Virus record (IMG/VR): IMGVR_UViG_3300042480_000533
Reading direction: 5' to 3' (one strand)
DNA: 64,000 nt
Source of the DNA: an uncultured virus (IMG/VR IMGVR_UViG_3300042480_000533)
Taxonomy: Duplodnaviria; Heunggongvirae; Uroviricota; Caudoviricetes
The position numbers and the translations under genes were made by a program. The notes under the pieces are model-generated. The model was not told the DNA's origin. It saw nothing but the letters and a program-made list of their open reading frames with translations, and searched no databases. Positions 4,270-61,835 of the stretch are shown in pieces. Position 1 is the stretch's first letter. Each line of letters starts with the position of its first letter.

Positions 4270-6705
4270 ATGCTAGAGATGTGGAAACAACTAACTAAAG
4301 AACAACAAAACACTAGGTTTTCTGTTCAAAAAGCAAACGAAGAAGAGTTGTTGACTAACAGTATTGACAAGTATTGGAGAGAGTATAACAGAGCACCTGA
4401 CGAGGGTAAGCCAGAACAACTACTGCTAGAAAGTGCGGTAGATCACCTTACTCCTTTTTATCAGGAATGGATTGACAAAGTATGTGCTGGCCGTAAGTCA
4501 CCCGATTGGTTGGCTCCCCTATTGCTTATTGGCCCCAGTAAGATGGCAGACATTACAATCAGAAATGTCCTCAAGGCTTTTCTTTCTAGAACAACCTTGC
4601 AGAATTTTGATGACTCTGTTGGTATTCCCCAGAATGCACCTGTTGGACAACAAGTTGCCAAAGCTATTGCAGAAGACGTAATCAATATTATTGCATACCA
4701 AAGTGCAAAGAAATCTTTTAAGGATGACTGGAAGCGTCAGTCTAAGTTTATTAAATCATGGACTCCCAAGCGTTGTCTTGGGTTTACCAAGAAGATGACT
4801 GGAATTCCTAAATACAAATCTAAGGACAAGGAAGACTTTGGTCACAACATGCTTAGGATTGCCCTTGCCAGTGACATCCTCATAAAGAGAATTCACTGGA
4901 ATGGTAGAAACAAGAAGACCATGTTGGTTTCCTTTGCTCCTTGGATTCTAAAGGAACTTTCCCATAGGCATGAAATGCTGGAAGCAGCTTGCATGGTCTA
5001 CCGACCTATGATTTGTCCTCCTGTGGAAAATACAAAAAACGAAAATGGTGGTTTTCTGTCTCCTTGGATTAGGAAGAAAATGATTAAACGGTATCACCCA
5101 GTAGGAGCAAACCCAAAGGAGTGGGACTCCAAGCCATCCGAACTTGTTCTTCGTGGTCTCAATGCACTTGGCAACACCGAGTGGTCTGTGAATGAAAAGG
5201 TCTACTCTGTAATGAAGACCATGTTTGAAAATGATTACAGAATTGCCAATGTGCCAGCAAGTTCCTTCAGGGATTTTTCTTTTAACATTCCCTACCCAGA
5301 ACACGGGACAAAAGAACAAAAGGCAATTTGGATGAGAGAGTCTAATGAAGCATGGGGAGAGTGGTACAAGGAAGAGCAATCCCGTAGTCGCATGATCGTC
5401 CGTCTTGAGTTGTGCAAGAAGATGATCAGCTGGGGATTCTTCTACATGCCATACACCCTTGACTTTAGGGGACGGGCTTATTCTGTTTGTGAGTTGCTGT
5501 CTCCCCAAGGTGTTGACTTTGATCGTGGTCTTGTTCAGTTTGCACTACCAAGAAAGCAAACAACCTCTGGCTTGTGGTGGATGCTGGTTCACCTTGCAAA
5601 CCTGTTTGATCAGGACAAGAAACCCTATACTGAACGGGTCAAGTGGGTAGATGACAACTGGAAAATGATTACTAGGATTGCCGAAGATCCACTGTCTAAC
5701 CGAGAGTGGGTAGATTTGTCTAAGAAAAAGAACAAGTCTTTCCAAAGACTTGCTGCTATTTTTGACATTACCCGTACTGACGGTATGACTCAGGTTCCTG
5801 TTCAGATGGATGGAGCTAACAATGGCGGACAGCATTGGGCTGCTATTCTCAGAAACAGAAAACTAGCTGAGCTTACAAACCTGTTAAGCGCAGAAGAACC
5901 TAAGGATTTGTATAAGTATGTAGCCGATGCTTCTACAGAACATATGAAAAACCATACTGAGAATGAATGGTTTTCTACTTTCTTGACGCACTGGCCTGAT
6001 GGCTTACCTCGTTCGGTAACCAAGCGGCCTACCATGTGCGATGCATATGGCTTGACATTCTACGGAATGCAGAAGTATGTGAATCAAGAAGGACATGTGG
6101 ATTGGGTTCCTAAAGACCAGCGCAGTGGTGCGGTTGTGCAGCTAAGCCGTGCTATTCAGGCTGGTCTTGGTGAAACAATGGCTTCACCAAACACAGGAAA
6201 GGAATGGCTAAGAACAGTAGCAAGTATTGTCAATGACATGAACAAACCATTGGTATGGACAACACCAAGTGGGTTTGAAGTTCACCATGTATACAACCAA
6301 GTAGTAGAGCGAGTAAGTTATGCTGAGTTGTTCAACAAACAACAATTGGTTTTCTCCACTATTACCGAGGATCTAGATGGGACGGCGCAGTACCTTGCGA
6401 TCTCTCCTAACTTTATTCATGCCTTGGATGCTGCTCACATGTTCATGACAATTGGCAAGATGCTAAACAAAGGGATGACTGGCTATTCCTTTGTACATGA
6501 CTCTTATGGAACATATGCACCAGATATTGACATGATGCATTTAATCCTAAGAGAAGAGTTCGTTGAAATTCACAAAGAGAATCAACTTGAAAAGTTCAAA
6601 CAAGAGATCGAAAAAAAATACAGCATCTTCCTCCCAGACTGTCCCCTCAGGGAAGATGGGTTTGAAATCGAAGAAGTCCTCAACAGTAGATTCTTCTTCG
6701 CTTAA
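4270..6705 (+). CDS. T7-type single-subunit DNA-dependent RNA polymerase (RNAP-1, full length)
   Basis: LDFRGRAY, LSPQG, motif A DGANNGGQH, motif B RSVTKRPTMCDAYG, PNFIHALDAAH, motif C VHDSY, C-terminal FFFA. ATG 4270 follows GGAG; the ORF is open from 4255. Confidence 0.97.
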   Translation: MLEMWKQLTKEQQNTRFSVQKANEEELLTNSIDKYWREYNRAPDEGKPEQLLLESAVDHLTPFYQEWIDKVCAGRKSPDWLAPLLLIGPSKMADITIRNVLKAFLSRTTLQNFDDSVGIPQNAPVGQQVAKAIAEDVINIIAYQSAKKSFKDDWKRQSKFIKSWTPKRCLGFTKKMTGIPKYKSKDKEDFGHNMLRIALASDILIKRIHWNGRNKKTMLVSFAPWILKELSHRHEMLEAACMVYRPMICPPVENTKNENGGFLSPWIRKKMIKRYHPVGANPKEWDSKPSELVLRGLNALGNTEWSVNEKVYSVMKTMFENDYRIANVPASSFRDFSFNIPYPEHGTKEQKAIWMRESNEAWGEWYKEEQSRSRMIVRLELCKKMISWGFFYMPYTLDFRGRAYSVCELLSPQGVDFDRGLVQFALPRKQTTSGLWWMLVHLANLFDQDKKPYTERVKWVDDNWKMITRIAEDPLSNREWVDLSKKKNKSFQRLAAIFDITRTDGMTQVPVQMDGANNGGQHWAAILRNRKLAELTNLLSAEEPKDLYKYVADASTEHMKNHTENEWFSTFLTHWPDGLPRSVTKRPTMCDAYGLTFYGMQKYVNQEGHVDWVPKDQRSGAVVQLSRAIQAGLGETMASPNTGKEWLRTVASIVNDMNKPLVWTTPSGFEVHHVYNQVVERVSYAELFNKQQLVFSTITEDLDGTAQYLAISPNFIHALDAAHMFMTIGKMLNKGMTGYSFVHDSYGTYAPDIDMMHLILREEFVEIHKENQLEKFKQEIEKKYSIFLPDCPLREDGFEIEEVLNSRFFFA

Positions 6706-6976
6706 GAATGTTGTATACCCCGACAAAGTTCCACGGCTTGTTGTAGTGGAATGGGTTGATGCCATGACCATTGGTGGTTCTGGTTGGATGGACAAGGATG
6801 AAGCCAAGACTACAGCCAAGGAACCTTTACCAATCATGCTGACTGTTGGTTATGTATTGCATGAAGACAAAGAGCAGATATCCTTGACTAGTACCATAGG
6901 CCCAGGAGAAACAGCTCAGGTCAATAAGATTCCAAAGAAAATGATTGAAAGAATACGGGAGATAGGGAATGGCTGA
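6656..6976 (+). CDS. Hypothetical phage protein
   Basis: VVVEWVDA...GW...TVGYVL...IP..MI pattern; start uncertain because it overlaps the RNAP end. Confidence 0.65.
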   Translation: MGLKSKKSSTVDSSSLKNVVYPDKVPRLVVVEWVDAMTIGGSGWMDKDEAKTTAKEPLPIMLTVGYVLHEDKEQISLTSTIGPGETAQVNKIPKKMIERIREIGNG

Positions 6977-7097: not shown

Positions 7098-7107
7098 ATA
7101 CCAGGAG

Positions 7108-9253: not shown

Positions 9254-9262
9254 GGTTAGTGT

Positions 9263-9334
9263 GGAGGGTTGCCTGAGCGGTCAAGGAGTCGGCATATAAC
9301 CGACCACAGACAGGTTCGACTCCTGTACCCTCTA
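9263..9334 (+). tRNA. tRNA-Ile(UAU)-like, atypical A33
   Basis: Acceptor GGAGGGT/ACCCTCT, anticodon arm GTCGG-CATATAA-CCGAC, T arm ACAGG-TTCGACT-CCTGT. Confidence 0.7.
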
Positions 9335-9339
9335 TTGTT

Positions 9340-9423
9340 GGATCTGTGGCTGGAATTGGCAGACGCAGCGGACTCAAAATCTGCTTCCTATACGGAGTGT
9401 GGGTTCGACTCCCACCAGATCCA
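9340..9423 (+). tRNA. tRNA-Leu(CAA)
   Basis: Acceptor GGATCTG/CAGATCC, anticodon arm GCGGA-CTCAAAA-TCTGC, long variable arm, T arm GTGGG-TTCGACT-CCCAC. Confidence 0.92.
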
Positions 9424-9540
9424 TTCTCTAGTATGCTGAGCCTAAATGCATAAAGAACTCTAGAGTCCAATCCCGAGGGACAACGACTTAGAGTTCACAG
9501 GAGGGGTTGCGTTTAATCCTTAGAAGAACGCACATGGTTA

Positions 9541-9609
9541 ACGATCTTAGTCTAAAATGGCAAGGCGGCATCGACGGATGCATTGTAGGTTCGACTCCTA
9601 CAGATCGTG
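9541..9609 (+). ncRNA. tRNA-like RNA with a 4-nt anticodon loop (no anticodon)
   Basis: Acceptor ACGATCT/AGATCGT, D arm GTCT..AGGC, GCATC-GACG-GATGC, T arm GTAGG-TTCGACT-CCTAC. Confidence 0.75.
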
Positions 9610-9614
9610 TTGTT

Positions 9615-9688
9615 ATTCCTGTAGCTCAACTGGATAGAGCAACAGCCTTCTAAGCTGTGGGTTACAGGTTCAAGTCCTGTCAGGAATG
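9615..9688 (+). tRNA. tRNA-Arg(UCU)
   Basis: Acceptor ATTCCTG/CAGGAAT, D arm GCTC..GAGC, ACAGC-CTTCTAA-GCTGT, T arm ACAGG-TTCAAGT-CCTGT. Confidence 0.93.
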
Positions 9689-9703
9689 TTAAGAGGAGTG
9701 TAT

Positions 9704-10520: not shown

Positions 10521-10864
10521 TGAGCAACATCATCGAAGATCGCGGACGCGGATTCCTCATTGAGATTGGGGAAGAACTCTCTCGCCTCCACGCCGAGAAC
10601 TCCGCGCTCAAGGCAGAGGTCGCCGCGATGCAGAAGCAGCGCGACGATGCGGATGCAGAGTGCCGCGAGGCAAACGCTTCATGGTGTCGCGAGATCGAAG
10701 AATCCATCGACCTCAACCGAGAACTCGCATCCATGCGCGAGCAGCGCGACGAGGCGCGGCGGGAGATTTGTGAGTTGAGGGCTGATCTTCGCGTCAACCC
10801 TACCTGCAAGAGGCAGGTCGCCGACGAGCGCGGCTGGGACTGCTTTAAGGAGAAAGACAAGTGA
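10520..10864 (+). CDS. GC-rich coiled-coil protein related to the 814-1999 cassettes
   Basis: Shares three near-identical DNA blocks with 952-987, 1851-1873 and 1950-1983. Confidence 0.75.
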   Translation: MSNIIEDRGRGFLIEIGEELSRLHAENSALKAEVAAMQKQRDDADAECREANASWCREIEESIDLNRELASMREQRDEARREICELRADLRVNPTCKRQVADERGWDCFKEKDK

Positions 10865-12227: not shown

Positions 12228-12403
12228 AATACACCCCAGAAGAAGTAATGGTTTTGTTGGAAAATGCCATTGAGTTTAACCCGCATGAAAAACACCATGC
12301 TGGATATACAGCCAAGGAATTGCATATCATGGCCTACAGGGCTATCAAAGATATGCTAAAAGAAAGGAACAGCCAAAATGACAAGTCGCGTTACAGCTTC
12401 TAA
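12224..12403 (+). CDS. Hypothetical protein
   Basis: ATGA overlap with thyX. Confidence 0.5.
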   Translation: MKYTPEEVMVLLENAIEFNPHEKHHAGYTAKELHIMAYRAIKDMLKERNSQNDKSRYSF

Positions 12404-14087
12404 GAGGTGCCCAAAGTGTGCAGCCAGTGGTGGCGACACTTCTGGTGACAACCTAAAGGTGTATGACGATGGTCATGCTTATTGCTTTGCTTGTAATTTC
12501 TATGTGAAAGGAAACCAACCAACTATGGTTGAAGAGACTAGTTCGGTATTTGCGACAGAGTCGTTTAGGCAGGGTACCATCAAGGAGTTGCCGCATAGGC
12601 GGATCACAGAAGACACGGCCAAGCATTACGGCTATGCCACTGGGATCAATAACTCCGAGATTGAAAACTTCTATGGACCAGATGGAAAGATCCAAGCCCA
12701 GCATATTCGTTATGATGGCAAGAAGTTCGCGTGGATCGGTAACACGGACAACCTTCCGTTGTTTGGTCAGCATCTATTCAGTGCTGGTGGCAAGCGTCTC
12801 CTTATTACAGAAGGAGCTATTGACTGCTTGACTATGTCTCAGGTGTTTGGAAACAAGTACCCAGTTGTGTCGATCCCCAATGGAGTAAGCTCTGCTGTTC
12901 GTGCAATCAAGGACAACTACGAGTTTGTCTCTTCCTTTGAGACAATTGTTCTTTGCTTTGACATGGACGATCCTGGCCAAAAGGCTGTGCGAGATGTGGC
13001 CGAGATCCTTCCTGCTGGCAAGGTAAAGATCATTTCCCTGCCACGCAAGGATCCAAATGAAATGCTTGTACACGCAGAGCAGACCGCCCTTGTTCAGGCG
13101 TATTGGAATGCCAAAGGCTACAGTCCAGATTCTATTCTTCATGTAAGTGAGATCGTTGGCTCGGAGAACACGGAAAAGAATCTTGATGTCTTTGAGTATC
13201 CTTGGGATAGCCTGACTACATTCATGATCGGACAGGATAAGCGGCGGCTTAATCTTTGGACAAGCGCCACGGGTCATGGTAAGTCCACTATCATCAGAGA
13301 GCTTGTGGCCGATCACCTCAATGCTGGTCGTGCCGTAGGTGGTGTCTTCCTTGAAGAGTCCCCCGAACAGACCGTAGACGATCTAATCTCCCTTAAGATC
13401 GGCAAACCAGTGTCAAAAATCAAAGCCCAGCGAATCCTCAATGAACTCAGGTCAAAGAAAGGCAAGAGTCTAATTGACGAAGTAAATGACACGCTGACCG
13501 AAGAAGAGTACAATGCTGCCAGAGTAGAGATTAGTTCCAAACCACTGTATCTATATGACCACATCGGTAATGCAAATATCAACAACATCATCAACAGACT
13601 TGAGTACATGGCTATGGGTCTTGATTGTCAGGTCATTTTCCTTGATCACATCACCTTGCTCGGCAATATGCTGTTGTCCAGTGGATCTGATTTTGGTAAT
13701 GATGAGCGTCTGGTTCTTGACTCTGTCATGAAGAAATTAAGAGAGATCATTGAAAGAACCGACGTGACAATCCATGTAATTGCACATATCAAGAAGACCG
13801 ATAAGAATGTAGACGAGGGTGATAAAATCTCCCTAAGTGATCTTCGTGGTTCTGGTTCTCTTGGTCAGATCTCGGACAATGTGTTTGCCCTTGAGCGCAA
13901 TGCCCAGCACCCAGACCCCTTGATCAGGAACACAACCAACCTAAGGTGTCTTAAAAATCGTCGTGGTGGCCGTAGAGGCATCGCTTCTGCCTTGTGGTAC
14001 AATGAACAAACCAGCAAGCTGATCGAAGTACCGTTTACCATTACCCCTGAAAACGAGGTATTGTATAGACACGAACTTGTAATGTAA
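12378..14087 (+). CDS. DNA primase-helicase (T7 gp4-like)
   Basis: Zn finger CPKC...YCFAC, TOPRIM ITEGAID and FDMDDPG, Walker A TGHGKST, LDHI, LRGSG. Confidence 0.96.
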   Translation: MTSRVTASKRCPKCAASGGDTSGDNLKVYDDGHAYCFACNFYVKGNQPTMVEETSSVFATESFRQGTIKELPHRRITEDTAKHYGYATGINNSEIENFYGPDGKIQAQHIRYDGKKFAWIGNTDNLPLFGQHLFSAGGKRLLITEGAIDCLTMSQVFGNKYPVVSIPNGVSSAVRAIKDNYEFVSSFETIVLCFDMDDPGQKAVRDVAEILPAGKVKIISLPRKDPNEMLVHAEQTALVQAYWNAKGYSPDSILHVSEIVGSENTEKNLDVFEYPWDSLTTFMIGQDKRRLNLWTSATGHGKSTIIRELVADHLNAGRAVGGVFLEESPEQTVDDLISLKIGKPVSKIKAQRILNELRSKKGKSLIDEVNDTLTEEEYNAARVEISSKPLYLYDHIGNANINNIINRLEYMAMGLDCQVIFLDHITLLGNMLLSSGSDFGNDERLVLDSVMKKLREIIERTDVTIHVIAHIKKTDKNVDEGDKISLSDLRGSGSLGQISDNVFALERNAQHPDPLIRNTTNLRCLKNRRGGRRGIASALWYNEQTSKLIEVPFTITPENEVLYRHELVM

Positions 14088-28298: not shown

Positions 28299-28335
28299 TA
28301 CCTAGGGGGTCGAAAGGCCCCCTAGGTATTTTTTT
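28299..28335 (+). terminator. Intrinsic terminator after the capsid gene (T-phi position)
   Basis: TACCTAGGGGGTC-GAAA-GGCCCCCTAGGTA followed by T7. Confidence 0.9.
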
Positions 28336-40060: not shown

Positions 40061-40837
40061 ATGGAACCAATGACAATGATCGCTCTAGGGTCAGCGGTGG
40101 CTGGTGGATTAAGTTCCATCTTTGGTGGTCGTTCCCAAAGTGCTGCCATAGCTGCCCAGAATCAACAAGCATTTAGAAACTGGATTGCTCAAAACAATCA
40201 AAAAGCCATTAATAACGCTAAGTCTCAGTTTGAGTCTGCCCAGGCTTTTGCTCAACAGATGAAAAGAAACGAGGCTATTACTAAAGCCGCATGGGAATAT
40301 GAGTGGGATGCTAAGCAAGCCGTAAAGGACTCCGTGACCTTCCAACAGGGAGAGCTTAGCAAGCAGCTACAAGCCCAGCGGGGGGCTTTGGTCAATGACA
40401 TCCTATCCAGAGGGGTCTCCAAGAACAGCGGGCTGTACGCGGCGTTAAACATGTCCCAAAGCATCAATGCACTAAGAGCTGCCAAGTCATTTGAAAAGAA
40501 TGCAATGGTACAACTAAACAACATTACAAAACAAAAGCAATCAATGCTTCAACAAACAACCGAAAATGTGTTTATGCCAAACATTGCTATGTTTGATGAC
40601 CAGCCCATTTACGGTGATGCGGGAGCTGCTAGGACAGCTGGAATGGTGTCTGGTTTGGTTCAAATTGGCGGTGCCTTTGCGGGCGCTGCTATAGGATCTA
40701 TGGGTTCAACATCTTCTTCAAGCCCAAGTCCAGCACAATATAGTGATGGTGGTTTGGGTTCTTCAAGTAATGTAGAAAATTTCAGTAATACTCCACAATC
40801 TGTTGGTAGTGTTTCTGGTAATAATGCAATAGGATAA
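40061..40837 (+). CDS. Internal virion protein (gp14-like)
   Basis: MEP..hydrophobic Gly/Ala N-terminus, Gln-rich helix, Gly-rich C-terminal segment. Confidence 0.75.
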   Translation: MEPMTMIALGSAVAGGLSSIFGGRSQSAAIAAQNQQAFRNWIAQNNQKAINNAKSQFESAQAFAQQMKRNEAITKAAWEYEWDAKQAVKDSVTFQQGELSKQLQAQRGALVNDILSRGVSKNSGLYAALNMSQSINALRAAKSFEKNAMVQLNNITKQKQSMLQQTTENVFMPNIAMFDDQPIYGDAGAARTAGMVSGLVQIGGAFAGAAIGSMGSTSSSSPSPAQYSDGGLGSSSNVENFSNTPQSVGSVSGNNAIG

Positions 40838-40847
40838 AGGAGCAATA

Positions 40848-44516: not shown

Positions 44517-44550
44517 ATACAGTATTTAAAAAATAACTAAGGAAACACAA

Positions 44551-53100: not shown

Positions 53101-56100
53101 GTTATGAAGGACCAGATTAACAACGGCATCTTGGATATGTTCCCATCCCGTATTGCCATGTATGAATCTGTCTTTAAGCTTATGGGTACCAATGCAAGAG
53201 CATACAGCCCAGGACAAACCTACAGCGTGTTGGACCTTATGGCAAAGCCAGAAGAAATCCGATTCACAACCAAAGAGATGGATGAACTAAGGAAAAACTT
53301 CCCTGATGGTCTTCGCTACATGGATTTGCTCAGGCATCTATCAACCAGATTTGACCGTCTAGAAGGACTAAAGCCAGAATTCCCACTAGTGCTGGAACCA
53401 GGACTTATTGTTCGTGGAGAACAAGGGCTAATCAAGGGAACACCCACATACAAAGCCCTAAGCGTATTTAACATCGAAACCAACAACAATACAGTCATGA
53501 TGCTCATGATGAGCGACTTGTTTGAAAAAGAAGCGCAGGAAGTCTATAGGTCCGATCCTGACTTTGACAAGTTCCCAAGAGACTCCGCTGGAAATCTTGT
53601 GCTGTCTATGCTTCCTGCTGACAAACTAAAGTCAGAAGAAATTCTTGACAGAGTCCTGAAGAAAGCTCCGCAACTTGCTGCCGAGCTTGGTACTCAAAAG
53701 GGTGTTTATTTTGTTCTTCACAAAGAACACCTAGACGGTATGGGCAAAATAGCCAAAGAACTTGTCACACCAGGACAAAGCTTGTTGGACATCAAAACTA
53801 AACTAACAAACATGGTTCATGTCTTTAGTCAGGTAAACAACCCAGACACTTTGTGGTACTTTACACCAGACATGGTAATTCAGTTCCTCAATTCACTCAG
53901 GAATAATCCAGTTATTTCTGCGGCTGAGCTAAGCTGGCAAACACACAAGACAGTCGGTTTTGCAAATACAGAAACAGATATCCTTGTCTTGGAACAGCAA
54001 AAACAATTGATGGATAATGTCGGTCGTAGCGTAGACCTTACCCACCAAGCGTTGGTATTGCTTCATACCGTAGACCCATCAAGCAACGAGAATGCTTTGC
54101 TGTATAGAAACAACTACAGAAGAAAAGACGCATTCGGCAAACCATCTGCAACCCTAGATGCAACCATGTACCTAGGAAAGACATTTGACATGGAAGTAAC
54201 CGTGGGTGGTAAATCACGCATGATGAAGAATGTACCTCTTGAAACCGCCGTGTATGCTACGGACATCTTGGCAGCAATGTCAAAAGCAAGAAAACTTGGT
54301 ATGGACAAAGAAGCCGACGAGCTTGGTGAGTTCCTGCTGGCCGAGATGCAAAACTCAAGTGTAAAGATCGAAACAAACAAGGCACTAAGGATCAACAACA
54401 CCCAGCATATTGTCATCAAGGCTGCTGTTCTTAAGTCAAGACTAGAGGGTATAAAAAGCAATAGAGTAGAAGGTGTCAAAGACACAATTATGTCTACCCT
54501 ACAGACGGAGATTACCCAAGAAGCTGCGAACAAGGTATACAAAGCCGCAACCAGAGTATCTCGGCTTTTGCAGAAGATTGCAGATGCCGTACCTGGTGAA
54601 AACCAGCAAATGACATATGTAGCCCACGCTTTGTTGTCAAAGATGGAAAACACAGAAGACGGAATCGAAGACAACACCGAGATTCAAAACAAGATCCTGG
54701 ATGCTGTCGGAGTGGACAAAACAGACAAAGAAAGAAGCAAGGCGGTCAGGGCAATCATTAATGCACGGCAAGACCTTACTACCGTACCAGAAGACAGACC
54801 CTTTACCCACCTACCGTGGGATGCCCGAAAGGATGTTGCAAAGTTTGCTGACCGTGATGAGTTTATCAACGCCTTTGGGGATGCTGGTCGTGGCATCGTA
54901 GCTCAGTTGGATGGCATGGTAGCCATGAAACTAATGTCTCGTCGTGTTGCCGATATGAAGATGATCCTCATTGGTTCCTTGGCATCAATCAACCCAAACA
55001 TCCTGTCAGATCTTGCACTAGAGGCAATGGAGTTTGATGGCCACACCTATGCCAAGATGGCTAAGCTTAAGGGCAAATACACCATTGGTCTAAACATCAA
55101 GGCCATGGAAACAACACCAGAAAACGAAATGTTGCTTAAGTTTGCGGAAGAACTTGTTCACCTTGCCCGAGTCAAGTACATGGCCGAAGGTTCCAACGAA
55201 TACAGAAAGATCCAAGCAATCTTTAGAACACCTAACTCGGAAGAAATGATCCGAGAGATGTTGTTTGCCATGAACAGGGACAAGCCATATGCTGCTATCG
55301 AAGCAGATGTTCGGTATGCCATGGAACACACGGACGAGTTCTTGGCTCACTGGGGAGCTGTCGTGTTGCTGGCCGAAACAGTCTACAGCGAGGAAACGAT
55401 GTCTGCTCTTGAAGCAAAGTATACCCCAGTAGAAATGCTTAATACATGGTACAAGAAAGCGTTCTTTAGGATTAAGAGCATTGCCGTCCGAAGTTTGAAA
55501 ATGGTAAGCCAAATCGCAGTTGATCCGAAATACGCCGCTAATTTCAACGAAATGTACAATGTAATGCAGGGAATAATCGGCCAAGGTATGGCAACCCGAG
55601 TAGACGCTGGAAACCCAGACACGGCATTTAACGCCGTCAAGTCAATTAGACCCAACTCTACAGAAGTAACACCAAGCATGGTGACAGACCTTCAGCGGCT
55701 CAGCATTGAGTTAAGAAATCTTAATAACAATATAGCAAAGAAAATCCCGTTGTCTCCCACTGAAAAAATGCGTCTAATTGAAATTGAAGACATCACCAAT
55801 AACAAGGAAATGAATCCACACGGTATTCTTGATATGACTGAGTTTGATGTCATTCGAGAAATGGAGAATGTAAACAGAGCGGAAGACGGTGCTATTGTCA
55901 GGCTAGAAACCCAGCCGCTGACCGAGCGAGCCGTTTTACAACGGGGTCTTACAAACCACCTTGCAGCCAGAGGATCACGTATTGACCAGAACGAAACCTT
56001 TGGTGGCTTGTTTAGAAACATTGCAAGTTCTTTAGGGTTGGATGACTTTGTAAGTTTGACAATCCAGAACAAACTGCTTGCTTCCATTAACGACAGCCAG

Positions 56101-59100
56101 CTAACCTACAACTCACCCGAAGGCATTTTGGTACTGATTTCCGAAATGATTGACAACACAACCGTAACTACCGAGTCAAGCTACAGACCATCCAGCATTG
56201 GTGGTGGGTTTGAGTTTAACAAGGAAGGTCTCAAGGGATATGTAGGGGATATCTGGAATGTAGCCACAGGTATCGACAGCAAGTACAAGTCAACCGTAAA
56301 AAAGGAAGAAGTATCAAACAATACAGCCCTAATTTTAAACAGCCTACCAACTACAACTACTGATTTAGAGATCAGGCGGGATGCGGAGCGTCTTGCTGAA
56401 AAGATCAAGTTGTTTAACGGTCAGTTGAGGAGTTTGTTGGTAAAGTCGAGAATCAAGGACAGGGGAGACAACTTAGATCCAATTGGCCTTAAGACGAGAA
56501 GATCTACAAAGCTAAACAGGGAAGACAAGGATCGTGGTCGTAAGGCAGTTGTAAACGCTATGCGTACCAAGTACACAAACAACCTAACGACCAACGGTGT
56601 TGATGCCGTTGTAAACCCCTTTATGTTGTTTATGAGCGGTAATATGCTTGACCCAAGCATGGACACCATCGGTGTGTCTTCGTCTGAGTTTGCTACAGAT
56701 CTTCGTAAGTTTACCGATAACCCAAACGATACGGCAGACAACGCAAGAGAAGCCATGGCCAAGCAGATCGTCAATGATGCACTAAGCATCAAGCTCGGTA
56801 GAGAAAAGAACTATAATGCAAGCACGACATTGGATGATGTCAAAAACAGCGCCCGCATAAATCCTGGTTATCTCAATGAAGATGTAATTGAAGCTACTAG
56901 AAGATTCATTATCAGAACAAGAGAAAACACCCAACGATTCAGCACGGCTTTCAAGCACCTAAGTAAGCCTGAGATTGAATTGATTGTCAAATCGGTCATT
57001 GAAACCGTATCCCAGACAAGACCAGATTCTTTGACAGCCGAGAAGATCAGGCAAATCCTGGACAACCGCGAGTCATTCGGGTATTACCAAGGTTTATCTC
57101 CTTACATTCCAGAAAGCCATGTCACGGCTACCCCAATGGACATTCTTACCGACCAGTTCCTAGGTAAACTAGGAGCAACCGCATACTTGTTCTCAGAGGG
57201 TGGTCCAGACCTAACCTATAAGGACATCTTCCTAGATCCCGTAAAGCCAAGTGAAAGCGGCATCCTACAGGTAATGTTTGAAAAAGACCTGTCCAACATT
57301 CAGCAAAGCTTGATGCGTGGTCAAGGGTATGACGCTATTCAGAGAATTGTTGTCCAAAAGACAATGGGAATCGAAGGAGCATACTTCAGTATTTCTCAGT
57401 TGATTGATATGTTTAAACGACAAATCTCAATGGAATCAAGTGCCGAAGCCAAGCGCATGGGTGTCAGAAACTTTGACAACAGAGGAGATGACGAAACAAG
57501 AGCAACCATAATTATGCGTGGCCTAGAAAGACTAGACGCGGCCAACCAAAAAGCCAAGGAAACATTGGGTACACGGCTAGAAGGCAAGCCTCTTATTGAT
57601 TTCTTAAATAAGTATGGACCAATGGCAACAACCCTTACTTACGGGCCAAATGCCGCATTGGCTACATCGTTGGTAGAAGGAACCATGTCCACGGTCAATG
57701 AGCTAATGCGGGGTCACAATCCGTTTACATTCTTGATCGAAGCAATTAGGATGAATGTCGAGACATCTGTTGGAACTGCATCCAGAGTCGTGTCAAGAAG
57801 AGATGGTCGTTTCTCATGGTTTAATGTAGACCCGTATGTTCTCAGTAAGGTAGCCGAGAATGCTTTGTGGATGTTTGAGGAAACCACATCTCCCATGATT
57901 CCAGGCCAGTTGGTCAGCAACGCGCTGTCTACGGCAGAGATTGAAGACATGTCCAGATGGGACAGATTCCTAGCGTTTTCCAGAAGGTCATACTCAGATC
58001 CAATGAGATCCCTAAGGGTTGCGGCTGAGAACCAAGCCAACAGAGGTATCTACCAAAGACTGCATGACGGCAGTCTCCTTAGATTGCGGGACAGCGTTAA
58101 CAAGATCCTAAGAGACAACCCATCCCCAAGCAATCAGGTATACCGAGAGGTAGCCAGAGATGCTGGTGTAAGGATGGATGTCGAGTTGATGGCAATCTAT
58201 GTACGGTCTGGCATCTTTGAGCCAGGTGTCATAGAAACCCTGAACTACGCCAGATCCAGTGCTCCACCAGAAACAGGCAAGATTCTATTCAGCGTCATGG
58301 CAGACCTAGAAGCAGCCCTGCCACCTGGCGGCGTGATCTACGATGGTGTTGTAATCACACCAGAAAGAATGCTGGCGGCAAGAACGACTTTGGCATCCTT
58401 GAGCAGACAGTATGCTGGACTCAGCATTGTCATGGATCACCCATTGGATGGTACGGCGGCAGCTTCGGCTACCAGTGTTGTCATAACATTCTTCAAGTCA
58501 TATCCAGCATTGTTCATGGCTCAGCATGTAATGCGTCAAGGTACGATTACCCCCATGCTTCGGCATGGTGCCAGGTTGTTGCTGCACGGTATGCTAGACA
58601 TGATTTACAACATCCTGCTGGCCTTGTCAAGCGGTTGGTACAAATGGGAAAAGTTGATGGACCATCTTGAAAAAGGAACCATCAGCAAAGCAGAAGCAAC
58701 AAAGCTGTTCCTAAGGCACCCAGTCTTTAGTATGAACATTCTTGGTATTGTTACACAAAGTCTTAGTAAGCTTGCGCTTCCTTCTGGCAGAGACAACAGC
58801 ATGATTAGTTCAGTAGGCGAAGTAGCCTTGGCTCAACAGGTAAGCAATATATTCAAAGCAGCTGAGTCATGGTACTACTATGCGTATGACAAGGTACCAG
58901 CCGAAAGCGCAGCAGCGTCTACCTATTCGGCATTGCGGGGTGCGTTGTCGTTTATTCCAGGCAACACCATGGTTCGCCTTACCCTGCAACAAGCATTTGG
59001 TCAGGCAGGAACCACAGGAACCGCAGGAACAGCCTCGGCAAAGACAATGAGGTATATTGACAGACTGACAGATGAACGGCCAGTTCTTGAGGCAGTACGC

Positions 59101-59295
59101 AGCATGTTCCCAGGGGGTCTTAAGAACCCCAAGAGAACCGTGTCCGAAGAACCACGGCAAATTAAGATGACCGATATCCCCAAGGTAAGGCCACCATCGG
59201 GTGAACCACAGCCAAAGGTAACTACGCCAACAACAAGATCACCGAGTATCCAAGAGCAAGCAACCACGCCACTGAAGGCTCCGTCTGGTCTGTAG
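47119..59295 (+). CDS. Giant internal virion protein (4058 aa): DEDDy exonuclease + putative virion RNA polymerase + degenerate zincin + gp16-like C-terminus
   Basis: YDIETD, FAGNHFD and YAEND exo motifs (aa ~598-808); FYTPLAQKGRW, DYSYHG (D1330), KGIITPAMY (K1441-Y1449) and GIWD (D1731) RNAP-like motifs; EELVH...EFLAH (aa ~2677); FFKSYP near the C-terminus. Confidence 0.7.
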   Translation: MACTIEQKKAIYEQLLRNGYAKEDADAVITLITERDSDPTFSNKIDDLVTDFLTDEDKAFLRETVDELTSNISKVIEGGFVYTFKDLISRMLPAEKADRLATLLSKIRIAEGDVNLFSLSQIENIDQLITMNRNLGREEVLPGLYEKRNKIQEKLDRERVYDGVKDGEKKQKRDSALNKLNQLKQILTYIEYTINVATPKDVRAKLRSYAMIKANIKNLENTIKASKKLLNRFKEGVKGTKERKAEIKELEKQLTEARASEKALLQELIDEKVVELGGKDSIKIRSVALARDQVTAAIEKEAAKLESLDSAEISELTVASATTLANQLAQERLAAKNIKNTVERMNNLVDFFEAESVKNGGAENEIDHLLMHNMVGKPIVEYYLRRREKREADDKEAKPIDRTLFTKEQAKEIIKEWERIAWRGVESGTFADNVTTVMDSELNLLEAIITQNGVANPLETDINNLVVKQDRTGSEALLNTNIGVIPDENKASTARQLSSWLEYTIRGLYSLRASPYYNGTISSKAVDMVLHPRLYDLSINSDDLGLVSKRKRKLGEAGKTLYVSKLQDTLKDLGIANPETLPEFQPDFDNRMDAVSYDIETDLTDKTTGNPSKILSMQVRVQDKSNAKEPVTFIFSNTDDSGIPTNSKDLPTGTRKPLNKQQIEYVLNFLEGYQNNGFKLVTFAGNHFDLGKLVNFVDNKNLVSRVALRSYDLQRNLGFDNTEREKGGAYYTSNPKNANLKSLAQNNLPPIREISPDGRYVITNGAVLRMSDDKKTETEVTGAEAEANFNLANADGDWALFDLYAENDVVITLGLFNHFMGSQKTIVTVKDKRDSSKDYTIVTSRPRSNMMLPINSSNIHSTTLGEIMAPFGNTSSNLKNFVLNVEYTEELDINLDKLISLVEGWYMQALAMDPESKDRVNELQKALTEAVNVDTIVQQTGRNIARRMADAVKKSAKENFDTFGYVLSLRLRGDGTIAMDVAETKPGVFEINEAEMYNGGSKDEYIETIAISFVDALSTSRQLDTVFTEFAESFGIPPVGETESPQRYVRENLVQVLKNYISIDSLSDFGDGTIDWHPATDVGRALAHVFTDRKEGMSLVDTQSLMNTEKLSKRNFISKEATNRGVPRYFLLDGANFASPWGITEEALIYDNFRLLTRVKDIMERDLTDKEIDEIMKWAETAEDTDPNVSLSVFRRGSVPGVFPKVTSRGPYDFLPDLSERELLGQEFLFDIPRAMMFINHDAFYTPLAQKGRWLTKGSVYYAEDFFTAGAPTAKMILSGAVDHTAWLVSFDMLDPNNKHLRKLLQKALSDGYDAIVADPTVQDMGNKSDYSYHGVHVQLMLALAYQKQNLSVFNDFIAQFLNSVDTANEPNVRRNLQEFKEKNDPREKLNDYLITLLEQAKKDGESFKAAFKISEEELVTFVQLGEFLGIDRPERKEFLKGIITPAMYDAGFDGIFEGILDKIDKEGMDLGLNHASIAAKIVLREAMKQNATYVEKAIGIMSKAKDGQFTKDMVIKAIMDMSSELDNEKIKESFDKNKFGEKDTKTRLDAAEKYLNAFVNMLAQKGTSVAGLNDKQRDDAINASKEKLRKVYQERINKAAAIMAKHDMSNPGIRSDPKIQDEINIALMGDKKAYETHLMLFTLAKRAATPFKMFTDAETVAMHSALAGQYIDESDIMPFVGKTLFHAMGSELASGRHHMFGSYDFGPQGPKEAQIRVLHGKEKNKYGIWDINEVYESKEREQAYRKAYAMQIMLDLVPNYYHPGYDPDKESMENYFDAMKKRSNLERLAQVNAIRTLEQANSVSPNDPEYENIQETAKKLRKSGFEERLTWVRNSYGRDNKNPVVLDPTVSGLAALRPRYANMDYTQRGMYALIEVMKSREIRQNEMFQKKKLLTAAPQDGDPNSIIPSRFRGFEKTTDKKNLPYIPHQTGNMVTSLVMSPNRETELEAIKLRNSLTYFATQNGLESLLENKEWTRLWMIREWRRQGLEKSVNVMKDQINNGILDMFPSRIAMYESVFKLMGTNARAYSPGQTYSVLDLMAKPEEIRFTTKEMDELRKNFPDGLRYMDLLRHLSTRFDRLEGLKPEFPLVLEPGLIVRGEQGLIKGTPTYKALSVFNIETNNNTVMMLMMSDLFEKEAQEVYRSDPDFDKFPRDSAGNLVLSMLPADKLKSEEILDRVLKKAPQLAAELGTQKGVYFVLHKEHLDGMGKIAKELVTPGQSLLDIKTKLTNMVHVFSQVNNPDTLWYFTPDMVIQFLNSLRNNPVISAAELSWQTHKTVGFANTETDILVLEQQKQLMDNVGRSVDLTHQALVLLHTVDPSSNENALLYRNNYRRKDAFGKPSATLDATMYLGKTFDMEVTVGGKSRMMKNVPLETAVYATDILAAMSKARKLGMDKEADELGEFLLAEMQNSSVKIETNKALRINNTQHIVIKAAVLKSRLEGIKSNRVEGVKDTIMSTLQTEITQEAANKVYKAATRVSRLLQKIADAVPGENQQMTYVAHALLSKMENTEDGIEDNTEIQNKILDAVGVDKTDKERSKAVRAIINARQDLTTVPEDRPFTHLPWDARKDVAKFADRDEFINAFGDAGRGIVAQLDGMVAMKLMSRRVADMKMILIGSLASINPNILSDLALEAMEFDGHTYAKMAKLKGKYTIGLNIKAMETTPENEMLLKFAEELVHLARVKYMAEGSNEYRKIQAIFRTPNSEEMIREMLFAMNRDKPYAAIEADVRYAMEHTDEFLAHWGAVVLLAETVYSEETMSALEAKYTPVEMLNTWYKKAFFRIKSIAVRSLKMVSQIAVDPKYAANFNEMYNVMQGIIGQGMATRVDAGNPDTAFNAVKSIRPNSTEVTPSMVTDLQRLSIELRNLNNNIAKKIPLSPTEKMRLIEIEDITNNKEMNPHGILDMTEFDVIREMENVNRAEDGAIVRLETQPLTERAVLQRGLTNHLAARGSRIDQNETFGGLFRNIASSLGLDDFVSLTIQNKLLASINDSQLTYNSPEGILVLISEMIDNTTVTTESSYRPSSIGGGFEFNKEGLKGYVGDIWNVATGIDSKYKSTVKKEEVSNNTALILNSLPTTTTDLEIRRDAERLAEKIKLFNGQLRSLLVKSRIKDRGDNLDPIGLKTRRSTKLNREDKDRGRKAVVNAMRTKYTNNLTTNGVDAVVNPFMLFMSGNMLDPSMDTIGVSSSEFATDLRKFTDNPNDTADNAREAMAKQIVNDALSIKLGREKNYNASTTLDDVKNSARINPGYLNEDVIEATRRFIIRTRENTQRFSTAFKHLSKPEIELIVKSVIETVSQTRPDSLTAEKIRQILDNRESFGYYQGLSPYIPESHVTATPMDILTDQFLGKLGATAYLFSEGGPDLTYKDIFLDPVKPSESGILQVMFEKDLSNIQQSLMRGQGYDAIQRIVVQKTMGIEGAYFSISQLIDMFKRQISMESSAEAKRMGVRNFDNRGDDETRATIIMRGLERLDAANQKAKETLGTRLEGKPLIDFLNKYGPMATTLTYGPNAALATSLVEGTMSTVNELMRGHNPFTFLIEAIRMNVETSVGTASRVVSRRDGRFSWFNVDPYVLSKVAENALWMFEETTSPMIPGQLVSNALSTAEIEDMSRWDRFLAFSRRSYSDPMRSLRVAAENQANRGIYQRLHDGSLLRLRDSVNKILRDNPSPSNQVYREVARDAGVRMDVELMAIYVRSGIFEPGVIETLNYARSSAPPETGKILFSVMADLEAALPPGGVIYDGVVITPERMLAARTTLASLSRQYAGLSIVMDHPLDGTAAASATSVVITFFKSYPALFMAQHVMRQGTITPMLRHGARLLLHGMLDMIYNILLALSSGWYKWEKLMDHLEKGTISKAEATKLFLRHPVFSMNILGIVTQSLSKLALPSGRDNSMISSVGEVALAQQVSNIFKAAESWYYYAYDKVPAESAAASTYSALRGALSFIPGNTMVRLTLQQAFGQAGTTGTAGTASAKTMRYIDRLTDERPVLEAVRSMFPGGLKNPKRTVSEEPRQIKMTDIPKVRPPSGEPQPKVTTPTTRSPSIQEQATTPLKAPSGL

Positions 59296-59325
59296 AAAAT
59301 CGGCTTAGGGGTCGAGAATTTTTGT

Positions 59326-59361
59326 GGGGGTAATAGTAGCTTATGGTAAGCTATTTCCCCC
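59326..59361. other. Imperfect inverted repeat at the late/early boundary
   Basis: GGGGG-TAATAG-TAGCTTA-TGG-TAAGCTA-TTT-CCCCC. Confidence 0.6.
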
Positions 59362-59417
59362 CCTCACCCCCAAGGTGTACCTGTGCACCAACGCCCCACA
59401 GGAAGAAAGGACATGGA

Positions 59418-59579
59418 ATGTTCTACTACAAGGTAATGAATGAGTTCGGTATGTTCGTGGATTCGGAGTCTTTCGAGACCGCCGAGGCCAGAGACAAGGC
59501 GTTGGCCTTGAAGAACTTCGACTCGTACTACATTATCTGGGTTGGCCAGGAGGGCCAGCCCGCCAAGCAAATTCAGTAA
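59418..59579 (+). CDS. Small early protein (53 aa)
   Basis: AAAGGA SD, C/G-ending codons. Confidence 0.65.
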   Translation: MFYYKVMNEFGMFVDSESFETAEARDKALALKNFDSYYIIWVGQEGQPAKQIQ

Positions 59580-59591
59580 AGCCCTACTGTC

Positions 59592-59622
59592 GCCCCTCTA
59601 GGAGCAATCCTAGGGGGGCTTT
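59592..59622 (+). terminator. Probable intrinsic terminator
   Basis: GCCCCTCTAGGA-GCAA-TCCTAGGGGGGC followed by TTT. Confidence 0.65.
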
Positions 59623-59686
59623 CAGTTGCGCTTTGCAACAAGGTGTACCTGTGCACCAACGCCACACAGGAAGAAAGAAAGACAAC

Positions 59687-59905
59687 ATGCTTAGAGATTT
59701 CAATAACAAAACCGCACCAACGCCGTCTGGTCTGGACCCGTTCGACTACTACTGGGGCGGGCGCACGGACGCCAACCTGGAGACGGGAGAGTGGAAGGAG
59801 ATCTGGCACAGCTCCTTCCGAAACCCATCGAAGGATCACGACATTGTGATTACCTTCGGTGCAGACGGCAAAATCATTTGTAAAGAAAGGCGCGACGGAT
59901 TCTGA
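59687..59905 (+). CDS. Small early protein (72 aa)
   Basis: ATG follows repeat copy 2 and a purine-rich leader. Confidence 0.6.
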   Translation: MLRDFNNKTAPTPSGLDPFDYYWGGRTDANLETGEWKEIWHSSFRNPSKDHDIVITFGADGKIICKERRDGF

Positions 59906-60035
59906 TCTGACCGACAACAAACCCTCCATGCTCTTTCAAGGGAGAGCATGGGGATGTTTGCTGTTGCAAACAACCCTGGCTTGTGGGGATCACAAGCAAT
60001 CAAGTCTTGGCAATGCCAAGAGAAAGGTAGATTCC

Positions 60036-61835
60036 ATGAATATCATGGATCTCATGGGCGAAAGCCTTAAGGTGGTATTCGGTGGGCGTTCGATGTCCTT
60101 CGCTACTGCGGCGATGAACGCGATGAAGATCGCGTCAGCCGTGGAAACGGAGGCAAACGAGCCACCGAACAAGACCTGGGAGCGCAGCAAGATGCTGCTC
60201 CAGGAACTGATCTCGGCGGGGGTGCTTCACACCACTCAGATCAGTAACCCCACCACGGGGTTGGCACAGACCTACTGTGCCTTCACGGAAGGCTTCGCAC
60301 TTCGGGAGTTCCGCAGAGAGCCGTGCCTCAAGGAAGAGGATCTCCTTACCACCTTTCGGACGGCGGGTGTTCTCAGCTACCTCGGTAGCTGTGGGATCCG
60401 CATCAACCCCGAGGTTGTGGCGTTCATCCGCCGCAACAAGGATCGGTACGAGAAGACCGATTCCATGGGACGGAGGGTCACACCCCCGTCCCTGTTCCTC
60501 AAGGACGCACAGTCCTTGGAGAACGAGGAGGATGACCGCCCGATCTACATGGACTACAAGAGTCCTGACGGTCGGCGCTTCTATGCACTTCACAATCGGT
60601 TTACCCACCAAGGTGCCGAATGGATGCGTGGCTCTGTGGATGCGGCTGAGGAGAAGCCGATCAAGCCCGAGGACATTGACGATGCGTTCAACATCGTCAG
60701 TGAAGAGACTGGCGTGACCCGTACCAACTGGCGCGCCATCCTCAAGGACGAGTCCCTGTGCTTCACGGGCAAGCACTTGGGCCTCAAGACCAGCAAGCCC
60801 GCAGCGGTGTACCGTGCTGCTCTCTTCTTCAAAGAAATCCTGGAGAAGGGACGGTCTGCGTACATCATCCAGCAGGACCAGACTTGCTCAGGGTTCCAGA
60901 TCATCGCCATGCTGCTGGCATGTCGAAACCTGATGACCTTGACGAACCTGAACGGAGGCACGAAGCAGGACTTCTACACTGCTTCGTCGGATCTGGCAAG
61001 GGGCATGTATTCGGGTGAGTTCTTCCCCGAGTGCTTGTTCATCCGCAGCGGTGCCAAGTACTTTGTGCTTCGTATCGGCTACGGTGCGGCCACATCCTCG
61101 CTGGCACGGGGTCTCATCCTTACTAACCCGCAGGAGAGTCCCGTCCAGTACCTGAGCGAGGAGGGCGCATTCATTCCTGGAGTCCTCGACAAGCTCCCGA
61201 TCCAGGACCTCAACGAGGACTACTACGAGATGTGGAAGTCCCTTGGGTGGAAGCGAGCGGTGGAGGTCAGTCAGCAGACCTCCAAGGCATACTACAATGC
61301 CATCATGCAGATCAGCCCCAAGCTGAGGTGGTTCCTGTCCAGTATGAAGCTGGCGAACAAGGTCGCTCTTGACCGTGGCGAGTTCTTGTCGTGGGAGCCA
61401 ATCCTAGGTGAGGTCAAGAAGAATGTCCGCTACACGGCGGACTGGAAGGCCAAGCCCCGCAAGGTGCAGTTCTTCGACAAGAACGGGAAGGAGTTCTATG
61501 TGAACATCCATCCCTTCATGAAGGATGCGGCGGCAAGCGCGGCTCCTCCGTGCTATGTCCACAGCTTTGATGGTGCAACCATCATGCTGGTGGTGGAGAT
61601 GTGCAGGGAAATCGGTATCCCCATATACCCGATCCACGACTCCACCGGTACCACAGTGGACAACTTCAAGAAGGTGAAGCAGATGTGGCTGGATGCCACG
61701 CGGCACATCTTCTGCTACGGTCCCTCTCCGTTCTGGGATGTTGTCAAGCGGTACAACCTCCCAGTTCCTGCATCTCTCTTTCCCAATGGGCAACCAGACC
61801 CCATCGATGTCTGGGGCGAGCACTTTATGGGTTGA
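60036..61835 (+). CDS. Second, compact T7-type single-subunit RNA polymerase (RNAP-2, ~599 aa)
   Basis: DYKSPDGRRFY, FTHQG, motif A DQTCSGFQ, motif B RSGAKYFVLRIGYG, PCYVHSFDG, motif C IHDS. ATG 60036 follows GAAAGG; the track ORF is open from 59859. Confidence 0.92.
   Translation: MNIMDLMGESLKVVFGGRSMSFATAAMNAMKIASAVETEANEPPNKTWERSKMLLQELISAGVLHTTQISNPTTGLAQTYCAFTEGFALREFRREPCLKEEDLLTTFRTAGVLSYLGSCGIRINPEVVAFIRRNKDRYEKTDSMGRRVTPPSLFLKDAQSLENEEDDRPIYMDYKSPDGRRFYALHNRFTHQGAEWMRGSVDAAEEKPIKPEDIDDAFNIVSEETGVTRTNWRAILKDESLCFTGKHLGLKTSKPAAVYRAALFFKEILEKGRSAYIIQQDQTCSGFQIIAMLLACRNLMTLTNLNGGTKQDFYTASSDLARGMYSGEFFPECLFIRSGAKYFVLRIGYGAATSSLARGLILTNPQESPVQYLSEEGAFIPGVLDKLPIQDLNEDYYEMWKSLGWKRAVEVSQQTSKAYYNAIMQISPKLRWFLSSMKLANKVALDRGEFLSWEPILGEVKKNVRYTADWKAKPRKVQFFDKNGKEFYVNIHPFMKDAAASAAPPCYVHSFDGATIMLVVEMCREIGIPIYPIHDSTGTTVDNFKKVKQMWLDATRHIFCYGPSPFWDVVKRYNLPVPASLFPNGQPDPIDVWGEHFMG

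Follow-up and report, generated by a model that had tools for sequence, protein, structure and literature searches.

Two T7-family RNA polymerases and a probable third polymerase module inside a giant protein of an uncultured T7-like phage

We analyzed a 64,000-nucleotide (nt) stretch of DNA from an uncultured Caudoviricetes virus (IMG/VR record IMGVR_UViG_3300042480_000533), here called the window. It carries the genes of two single-subunit RNA polymerases (RNAPs), RNAP-1 (4270–6705) and RNAP-2 (60036–61835), and of a giant protein of 4058 amino acids (aa) at 47119–59295 that probably contains a third polymerase. All the long open reading frames (ORFs) of the window lie on the plus strand, as do the 39-nt elements, the stem-loop array and the small early genes described below. 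The three polymerase modules appear to be members of the T7/N4 single-subunit superfamily and are most likely used as a relay. A first-pass annotation, made by a model from the letters and translations, had proposed such a cascade.

RNAP-1 has 811 aa from the ATG at 4270, in a frame that opens at a TTG at 4255. It matches PF00940 with 262.9 bits (E = 7e-78; cut-off, 22 bits) and phrog_414 over the full profile length (residues 23–816, E = 9.3e-153), and its match to RPOL_N is weak (26.7 bits, below the cut-off of 30.1; E = 4.5e-6). Its best cultured relatives are only ~28% identical, and the 12 listed include Agrobacterium phage Alfirin and Rhizobium phages. RNAP-1 is a full-length T7-type enzyme with intact catalytic motifs.

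RNAP-2 is compact. Its frame spans 59859–61835, and the ATG at 60036 is the most plausible start because the resulting 599 aa fits the 580–601 aa of the 13 relatives, all of which match PF00940. RNAP-2 itself matches PF00940 with 43.3 bits (E = 2.8e-11; same cut-off) and phrog_414 with 71.8 bits (E = 7.3e-20), the latter at profile positions 378–760 of 816 only. Because the match is confined to these positions, RNAP-2 appears to be devoid of a detectable T7-type N-terminal promoter-binding domain. About 164 residues precede the matched part, and no RPOL_N match was found in the Pfam and PHROG searches.

The T/DxxGR motif (PDGRR) and motifs A (QQDQTCSGFQ), B (R..K..YG) and C (HDS) of RNAP-2 stand in the canonical order and are invariant in 14 of 14 aligned sequences, the invariant residues being D178, R180, R181, D281, R337, K341, Y349, G350, H534 and D535. 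As judged from these motifs, RNAP-2 is a T7-family RNAP with an intact catalytic set. RNAP-1 and RNAP-2 are barely alignable and very divergent from each other (BLASTP E = 1e-4, 24% identity over 171 aa). The first-pass annotation had called RNAP-1 a full-length and RNAP-2 a compact T7-family enzyme, both with all catalytic motifs and far apart from each other, and it is borne out on each of these points.

RNAP-2 does not group with the N4 RNAPII, which is split in two. It is a single ORF, and scores only 39.4 bits with phrog_2051 (N4 gp16 family) against the 71.8 bits with phrog_414. The PHROG search gave no match to phrog_2166 (N4 gp15). BLASTP alignments with N4 gp15 and gp16 are colinear but weak (E = 0.039 and 0.001, respectively).

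The 4058-aa ORF noted in the first-pass annotation is real. Among 1.84 billion representatives, an exhaustive HMMER search detected 33 related proteins at E ≤ 1e-3, of which about 17 are full-length (3700–4230 aa), and a search with residues 1130–1800 added only one further, partial relative. Four large genes without annotation adjoin the terminase gene, and that of the giant comes last. The giant has one cysteine in 4058 residues, at position 3 (47125–47127), in contrast to 12 in the DNA polymerase; RNAP-1 has 8 and RNAP-2 has 10. A cysteine at position 3–6 is kept in all 17 aligned relatives, which are otherwise almost cysteine-free. This lone N-terminal cysteine might serve for modification or anchoring.

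The nearest protein clusters of the C-terminal 1659 aa are large viral proteins, some with LPD domains (score, 0.95–0.97). Because of these neighbors, the cysteine depletion and the last-gene position near the terminase, the giant is read as an ejected protein. It fits an internal virion protein of the gp16, IVP-D or N4 gp50 kind, and is probably such a protein or a ‘polyvalent’ one. The virion RNAP (vRNAP) of N4 is described, in a passage by Hardies and colleagues (PMC4819975), as embedded in a homologue of T7 gp16 (IVP-D).

The putative RNAP module of the giant lies at about aa 1195–1720 (50701–52278) and was delineated by invariant columns, motif contexts, hhalign and protein-language-model neighbors. 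In the alignment of 17 relatives, few columns are invariant overall, but H1241 and D1242 (50839–50844), D1330 (51106), G1335, K1441 (51439) and R1697 (52207) are so in all 17. D1330-x4-G1335 has the Asp-x4-Gly form of motif A, as in the T7 and N4 RNAPs. At the place of this glycine, five residues after the motif-A aspartate, the family-A DNA polymerases have their steric-gate glutamate.

The motif-B-like segment, [KR]xxxKxxxxPxxYxAGxxGI with K1437, K1441 and Y1449, has the R/K-x3-K-x7-Y spacing of motif B and resembles N4 RGIAKNPLTITIYGSGARGIAG. D1330 and K1441 are 111 residues apart, the same as the corresponding N4 residues in the numbering that we take N4 vRNAP to have. The combined A–B pattern is found a single time, at the aligned position, in N4 vRNAP and in 16 of the 17 relatives; it arises in 79 of 2000 shuffles of the giant. 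Downstream, IYFxYGxExASGR1697NHM...GP(E/Q)xSKxAQxR is similar to what 13 Schitoviridae vRNAPs have at T/DxxGR, IHYAYNMTRVGRMQMLGKYNPQSxKLVR. Written as ExxxGR1697..M..G.Y...PQGxK, the segment is also close to the N4-like TRVGRMQMLGKYNPQSxK. Upstream, the invariant HD sits in a predicted β-hairpin (1238–1245), whose h-N-H-D-C/A-x-Y resembles motif C of Pseudomonas, Vibrio and Pseudoalteromonas vRNAPs (LNVHDA, IGVHDA).

Profile comparison points the same way. With hhalign, residues 1130–1960 were aligned to the vRNAP family, 13 sequences made up of 12 GenBank Schitoviridae records and N4. The best alignment pairs the GR1697 segment with T/DxxGR (score 31.3, E = 0.052), and a second one is colinear and ends on motif B (score 30.7, E = 0.061), against 13.5–24.5 in all six reversed or column-shuffled controls. 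These motif-on-motif alignments are support, not proof, of kinship with the vRNAPs. As a lead only, the nearest protein-language-model clusters of residues 1040–1800 are PF00940 families and an N4-vRNAP-domain cluster (0.87–0.89).

Structurally, two AlphaFold models of the giant, residues 1001–2200 (predicted local distance difference test, pLDDT, 61.9) and residues 1130–1800 (pLDDT 65.1), were aligned to 48,161 PDB representative chains without Foldseek. T7 RNAP (3e2e_A) ranks first with both models (Z of 8.1 then 7.3, root mean square deviation (rmsd) of 2.7–2.8, 94 residues, T7 568/569–689) and human mitochondrial RNAP (9mn4_E) ranks second with both (Z of 7.5 then 7.0). Together, these alignments have rmsd of 2.7–3.1 over 88–94 residues, and the ranks below are unrelated helical proteins at 5.8–5.9. 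N4 mini-vRNAP is absent among the best 50 of the 48,161 matches listed for either model.

The matched piece, aa 1384–1499 (51268–51615), resembles the fingers and O-helix of T7 RNAP, carries the motif-B-like sequence and is well modeled (pLDDT 70–90). From the aligned ranges, K1441 would be placed about where K631 of T7 RNAP lies, in what we take to be its numbering. The weight of this predicted match comes from the same two polymerases being first twice and from the aligned helix bearing motif B, and it supports a polymerase module in the giant.

A DEDD-type 3′–5′ exonuclease-like module of the giant precedes the putative polymerase module, at aa 593–808 (48895–49542). It has the motifs DxE (DIET), NxxxFD (NHFD) and YxxxD (YAEND), and D598, E600, D689, Y804 and D808 are conserved in at least 90% of the 17 relatives. 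Its profile matches are below threshold, namely PF13482 RNase_H_2 (E = 0.021, 15.2 bits versus 22) and the DNA polymerase family phrog_17 (E = 0.03).

Other observations weigh against a polymerase in the giant. The apparent motif order is HD, A, B and GR. In place of the T/DxxGR expected ahead of motif A stands the HD, 88 residues before D1330, and in place of the motif C expected after motif B stands the T/DxxGR-like hairpin (1684–1716), at a distance of 256 residues from that motif. The alignment of the 17 relatives revealed no canonical motif C past motif B. Another stretch that looks like motif A, VYYAED1265FFTAG1270APTAKMILSG, resembles N4 LYVEADGVTNGPINAMMLMTG and is paired with it by BLASTP at E = 1.7, but D1265 is not invariant and is kept in only ~10 of the 17 relatives. 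The hhalign probability for the vRNAP family is only ~1%. In the models, the palm stretches 1231–1278 and 1323–1350 have pLDDT below 50 and lie outside the structural alignment, which spans only the ~94 residues of the fingers piece with Z of 7–8, a value common for such alignments.

The database searches add to this side. Foldseek with both models gave nothing at E ≤ 0.001 in PDB or BFVD. Pfam gave no polymerase family on the giant at E ≤ 1 but three sub-threshold, unrelated matches, and PHROGs gave no family of any kind on the whole protein at E ≤ 0.01. Residues 1130–1800 matched no polymerase family in PHROGs at E ≤ 0.1, the sole match being phrog_653 of unknown function (E = 0.024). The N4 vRNAP families phrog_2206, PF21867, PF21894 and PF21624 matched neither the whole protein at E ≤ 0.01 nor residues 1130–1800 at E ≤ 0.1. 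As a positive control, N4 mini-vRNAP scored 1230 bits on phrog_2206 and matched phrog_414 at E = 5e-6; residues 1130–1800 reach neither family at E ≤ 0.1.

Against PDB sequences, phmmer with the giant gave no match at E ≤ 10, and the 17-sequence profile found coiled-coil proteins only, which are noise. Comparison of the giant family by hhalign with the single N4 mini-vRNAP sequence gave nothing and with the RNAP-2 family nothing usable, both at a probability of ≤1%. Nor did tblastn of residues 1130–1800 match any of 50,697 phage records, and megablast of window 40000–62500 gave no match. On these searches, a statistically significant sequence link from the giant to any polymerase was not found.

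Three more candidates within the giant were tried and rejected. A second polymerase module past R1697 (LDxxVxG near 1847, RG at 1913–1914) has no invariant aspartate or lysine. D1676 and D1731 as motif C are either not in a hairpin or not conserved. The arginine of TDVGR at 1080, taken as T/DxxGR, is not conserved.

Either the two hairpins swapped their roles in a rearranged palm, or some of the likenesses are by chance and the true motif C is unrecognized. To our knowledge, a palm with the order HD, A, B and T/DxxGR has not been described for DNA-dependent single-subunit RNAPs. We think it unlikely that all of the boldest version holds, namely an active RNAP of this order in the giant, fused with an exonuclease and starting a three-polymerase relay independent of the host RNAP.

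The first-pass annotation had seen an RNAP-like motif set in the giant and had suggested profile searches, AlphaFold and Foldseek for all three proteins. Invariant A-, B-, C- and T/DxxGR-like residues and a fingers fold match uphold this set in part, but its order is unusual and no hidden Markov model (HMM), profile or Foldseek match backs it; RNAP-1 and RNAP-2 have their PF00940 matches, while the giant has the fingers match only. On balance, a third polymerase inside the giant is probable from its sequence and models.

The arrangement of the three genes is conserved. The five RNAP-2-bearing IMG/VR relatives all hold the giant ORF (4048–4177 aa) upstream on the same strand. Four of them have a full RNAP-1 (open frames of 812–823 aa) ~8–13 kb downstream, and the fifth is a 54%-complete fragment that ends before the place of RNAP-1. 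The co-occurrence survey advised in the first-pass annotation thus came out in favor of its grouping. The order of giant, RNAP-2 and RNAP-1 on one strand is kept in relatives with the giant segment only 30–64% identical.

In genome order, the giant is followed by two small ORFs, RNAP-2, ~13 kb, RNAP-1 and then the replication and virion genes. In L001, a relative of 49 kb, the RNAP-2 block comes after the giant gene, and ~7.5 kb later comes the counterpart of window 2005 onward. Because of this gene order, the window is taken as a permuted view of the genome. The early block runs from 59.3 kb off the end, via a stretch outside the window, and back in at base 1. An RNAP-2 relative with 93% identity sits on a contig of 71,126 bases, the longest that carries one, which suggests a genome size of ~71 kb.

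The proposed relay has three steps. First, the giant, as the product of the last ejection-protein gene, would be packaged in the capsid and leave it together with the DNA, and its residues ~1195–1720 would act as a very divergent N4-vRNAP-like RNAP to read the first-entering DNA, the block from ~59.3 kb. Second, this block would yield RNAP-2, which would transcribe the ~13-kb middle block that ends with RNAP-1. Third, RNAP-1, as an ordinary T7-type enzyme, would transcribe the replication and virion genes. A relay with its first enzyme delivered as protein predicts the conserved order of giant, RNAP-2 and RNAP-1. What we infer is that the giant is packaged, is ejected and acts as a polymerase, that the enzymes are assigned to the blocks in this way and that host RNAP is not needed, and we regard the full relay from virion RNAP through RNAP-2 to RNAP-1 as evenly poised between true and false.

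Two results on promoters count against the relay. By exact k-mer and repeat searches, neither a promoter family for any of the three RNAPs nor a T7-like promoter consensus was found. A 39-nt element present in two copies at the start of the early block (59371–59409 and 59639–59677; repeat family D14, 97% identity) is not supported as an N4-type hairpin promoter because it folds no better than its shuffles (z of −1.35, 0.36 and 0.67).

The best surviving alternative is a relay of two polymerases started by the host. The first genes, that of RNAP-2 among them, would be read by host RNAP, after which RNAP-2 would take over the middle block and RNAP-1 everything else. In this case the giant would be an ejection or ‘polyvalent’ protein, and its module would be inactive or have another nucleic-acid role, perhaps acting with the exonuclease-like module. 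Host RNAP is the usual starter in T7-like phages, and the missing HMM, profile and Foldseek links, the odd motif order without a located motif C and the C-terminal nearness to LPD-bearing large viral proteins rather than polymerases all suit this alternative. They are opposed by the fingers match to T7 and mitochondrial RNAPs reproduced at ranks 1–2 of 48,161, the invariant residues in N4-like motif contexts and the presence of giant and RNAP-2 together in all five relatives.

Opposing it weakly as well, a σ70 consensus scan of 59200–64000 gave no site on the plus strand, although this consensus may not suit the host. The one minus-strand site compares with 2.4 expected over both strands. We hold the host-started relay to be a tentative possibility.

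Another alternative is that RNAP-2 is a specialized enzyme for replication priming, for genome pull-in or as a spare polymerase against host defenses, so that the order of use differs from the relay. This would agree with its unmatched T7-type promoter-binding N-terminal part and with the failure to find an RNAP-2 promoter family. N4 RNAPII, the analogue nearest to RNAP-2 in size, also depends on cofactors and a single-stranded template, as stated in part of PMC4496689. But the catalytic motifs of RNAP-2 are all invariant, and its gene is among the first of the early block, after two small ORFs and ~13 kb upstream of RNAP-1, in a conserved placement that the relay predicts. We deem a specialized RNAP-2 improbable.

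The first-pass annotation had named a chimeric misassembly of 59.3–62.4 kb as what would overturn the cascade, and the only sign of such a foreign high-GC block (59.3–64 kb) is the GC profile, ~42% from 2 to 58 kb, 50–60% in 59.3–63.1 kb with a jump to 55–60% at 59.3 kb, and 55–71% in 1–2000; its chance is practically nil, since the same junction occurs in all five relatives, L001 also shows the GC rise across its RNAP-2 block, a 3852-nt contig of an independent lake metagenome, which carries no flag as a potential source, covers 58667–62518 without a difference and a second metagenome run covers 58573–59641. The chimera idea is refuted and the junction is genuine.

Returning to the relay that begins with the giant, its nearest model is the N4 programme, which proceeds from the virion RNAP gp50 to RNAPII (gp15 and gp16) and then to host RNAP with N4SSB, as outlined in part of PMC4496689. 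We rate the scheme as a variant of this programme on a T7 chassis. As in N4 (Schitoviridae), the ejection-protein genes end with that of a giant of >3000 aa whose central polymerase module is here a predicted one, and a small T7-family RNAP of ~600–670 aa without the full N-terminal domain lies in the early region. The contexts of motif B and T/DxxGR in the giant also resemble the N4-like vRNAP consensus.

Unlike N4, this phage has a T7-like chassis, its RNAP-2 is one polypeptide instead of a heterodimer and nearer phrog_414 than phrog_2051, and a T7-type RNAP of the phage would serve the last stage, which N4 leaves to host RNAP. The giant is also outside phrog_2206 and the N4 vRNAP Pfam families, with its extra DEDD exonuclease-like module and non-canonical-looking motif order. 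The first-pass idea of an N4-style injected RNAP on a T7-type chassis is partly supported, in that the chassis is T7-like and the cysteine-poor giant fits an ejected protein in the gp16/gp50-like position.

T7 and the Autographiviridae have one single-subunit RNAP at the end of the host-transcribed early region and the internal core proteins gp14, gp15 and gp16. RNAP-1, the replication module, the portal, the tail tubes A and B and the one-strand gene order are all shared with them, and the giant occupies the position of their last ejection protein. Unlike in T7, there are two extra polymerase modules, the one in the giant being predicted, and ~16 kb precede RNAP-1 with no recognizable σ70 site in the scanned part. 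The terminase gene here comes before the ejection-protein genes, not after, and T7 gp16, at the size that we take it to have, is a third as large as the last ejection protein here.

The giant is also like the polyvalent proteins and IVP-D homologues with cargo domains treated in parts of PMC5512222 and PMC4819975, in being very large, multi-module, cysteine-poor and encoded with the virion genes. This likeness is by cluster proximity only, and a cargo pair of exonuclease-like and RNAP-like modules in a T7-like phage was not found in the available text of these two sources. With the virion RNAPs of phiKZ-like jumbo and crAss-like phages, as sketched in portions of 10.1101/2020.03.07.982082 and 10.1101/2023.09.14.557509, it would share an injected phage polymerase that starts infection without host RNAP. 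Those enzymes have a two-barrel multisubunit-type fold, unlike the right-hand T7 type matched by the giant.

A full-text literature search of limited coverage found no T7-like phage for which two or three single-subunit RNAPs are described. According to a part of PMC10747016, its size, its helices and its want of cysteine led to the guess that the giant protein of another podophage is a vRNAP.

If the relay is true, a T7-type phage has adopted the N4 strategy of bringing its own polymerase and outdone N4 by replacing host RNAP at every stage. It would have three mutually divergent and presumably orthogonal single-subunit RNAPs in one genome, one of them of 599 aa, and such RNAPs would be useful for in vitro transcription and synthetic circuits. 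Moreover, giant ejection proteins of non-N4 podoviruses could hide polymerases that standard annotation misses. The family is shared by at least five related viral contigs and about 17 relatives of the giant that are full-length, and the junction stretch is present in many lake metagenomes, so that this is a lineage, not a one-off.

The rest of the early block has further repeats and small genes. Each copy of the 39-nt element, a candidate early promoter or leader, is just 5′ of a small ORF (59418–59579 and 59687–59905). Its 24-nt core occurs twice in the window versus none expected, and once in L001. A 12-bp hairpin followed by T's lies between the two copies (59592–59619), and a 13-bp hairpin precedes RNAP-2. 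One contig of run X5 skips 332 nt within 59636–59969, which would drop the second element with its ORF, and the number of such repeat-plus-ORF units appears variable between strains.

A 162-aa ORF of unknown function with a Shine-Dalgarno-like sequence lies directly 3′ of RNAP-2 (61862–62350) and has no Pfam match; the small early proteins gave no family match. Rfam on 59200–64000 returned sub-threshold, chance-level rows only. Contigs of two RNA libraries cover 59370–59577, 60021–60225, 62872–63157 and 63371–63416, although such contigs cannot show transcript ends and the libraries may contain DNA. Over the 3′ part of the giant gene (57500–59295) neither of the two runs has a contig, which is uninformative by itself.

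The ~430 non-coding nt at 62370–62800 form an array of about a dozen short stem-loops, which are rich in G+C and of the CCC-TTCG-GGG type. CCTTCGG has 8 of its 11 window copies within 62375–62794 and 9 copies at the matching place of L001 (~12400–12800), and none there in relatives L006–L009. As RNA the stem-loops would be C(UUCG)G tetraloops, and their template-strand DNA sequence is C-GAA-G, the loop type of the N4 early-promoter hairpins in part of PMC4496689. The stem-loops could be terminators, RNA stabilizers or hairpin promoters.

Also part of the early block are tandem paralogous small genes at 1–1999 (repeat families D1–D8), with 55–71% GC and third-codon-position GC (GC3) of 0.64–0.80. 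They have overlapping ATGA junctions and identical Shine-Dalgarno contexts within a 42% GC phage, and a related stretch lies at 10571–10857. These genes look like a recent gain, because L001 has ordinary GC at their counterpart.

As to the chassis, PHROG matches include metallo-phosphoesterase, gp2.5-like single-stranded DNA-binding protein, thymidylate synthase, primase/helicase, DNA polymerase, exonuclease and ribonucleotide reductase, followed by portal, scaffold, major capsid protein, tail tubes A and B, fibre and large terminase. Between terminase and giant, the genes of 258, 1222 and 853 aa (40061–47112) are without PHROG or Pfam match, as the giant is without PHROG match, and are candidate internal virion or ejection proteins by position. 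The 1222-aa protein has no cysteine and the 853-aa protein has one.

The source is best explained as an uncultured freshwater T7-like podovirus with the ~71-kb genome. Part of the 59.3-kb junction stretch is held by 24 listed metagenome runs, all labeled lake-water or freshwater, and at least half of its sampled words are present in 13 of the 24.

Three tRNA genes lie in 9262–9689, for Ile (TAT), Leu (CAA) and Arg (TCT). A strong hairpin with a T-run is directly 3′ of the major capsid gene (28300–28335), presumably at the place of the T7 T-phi terminator. The 853-aa protein ends in a linker rich in Ala, Pro, Thr and Glu, encoded by a 21-nt tandem repeat (46888–47013) just before the giant gene.

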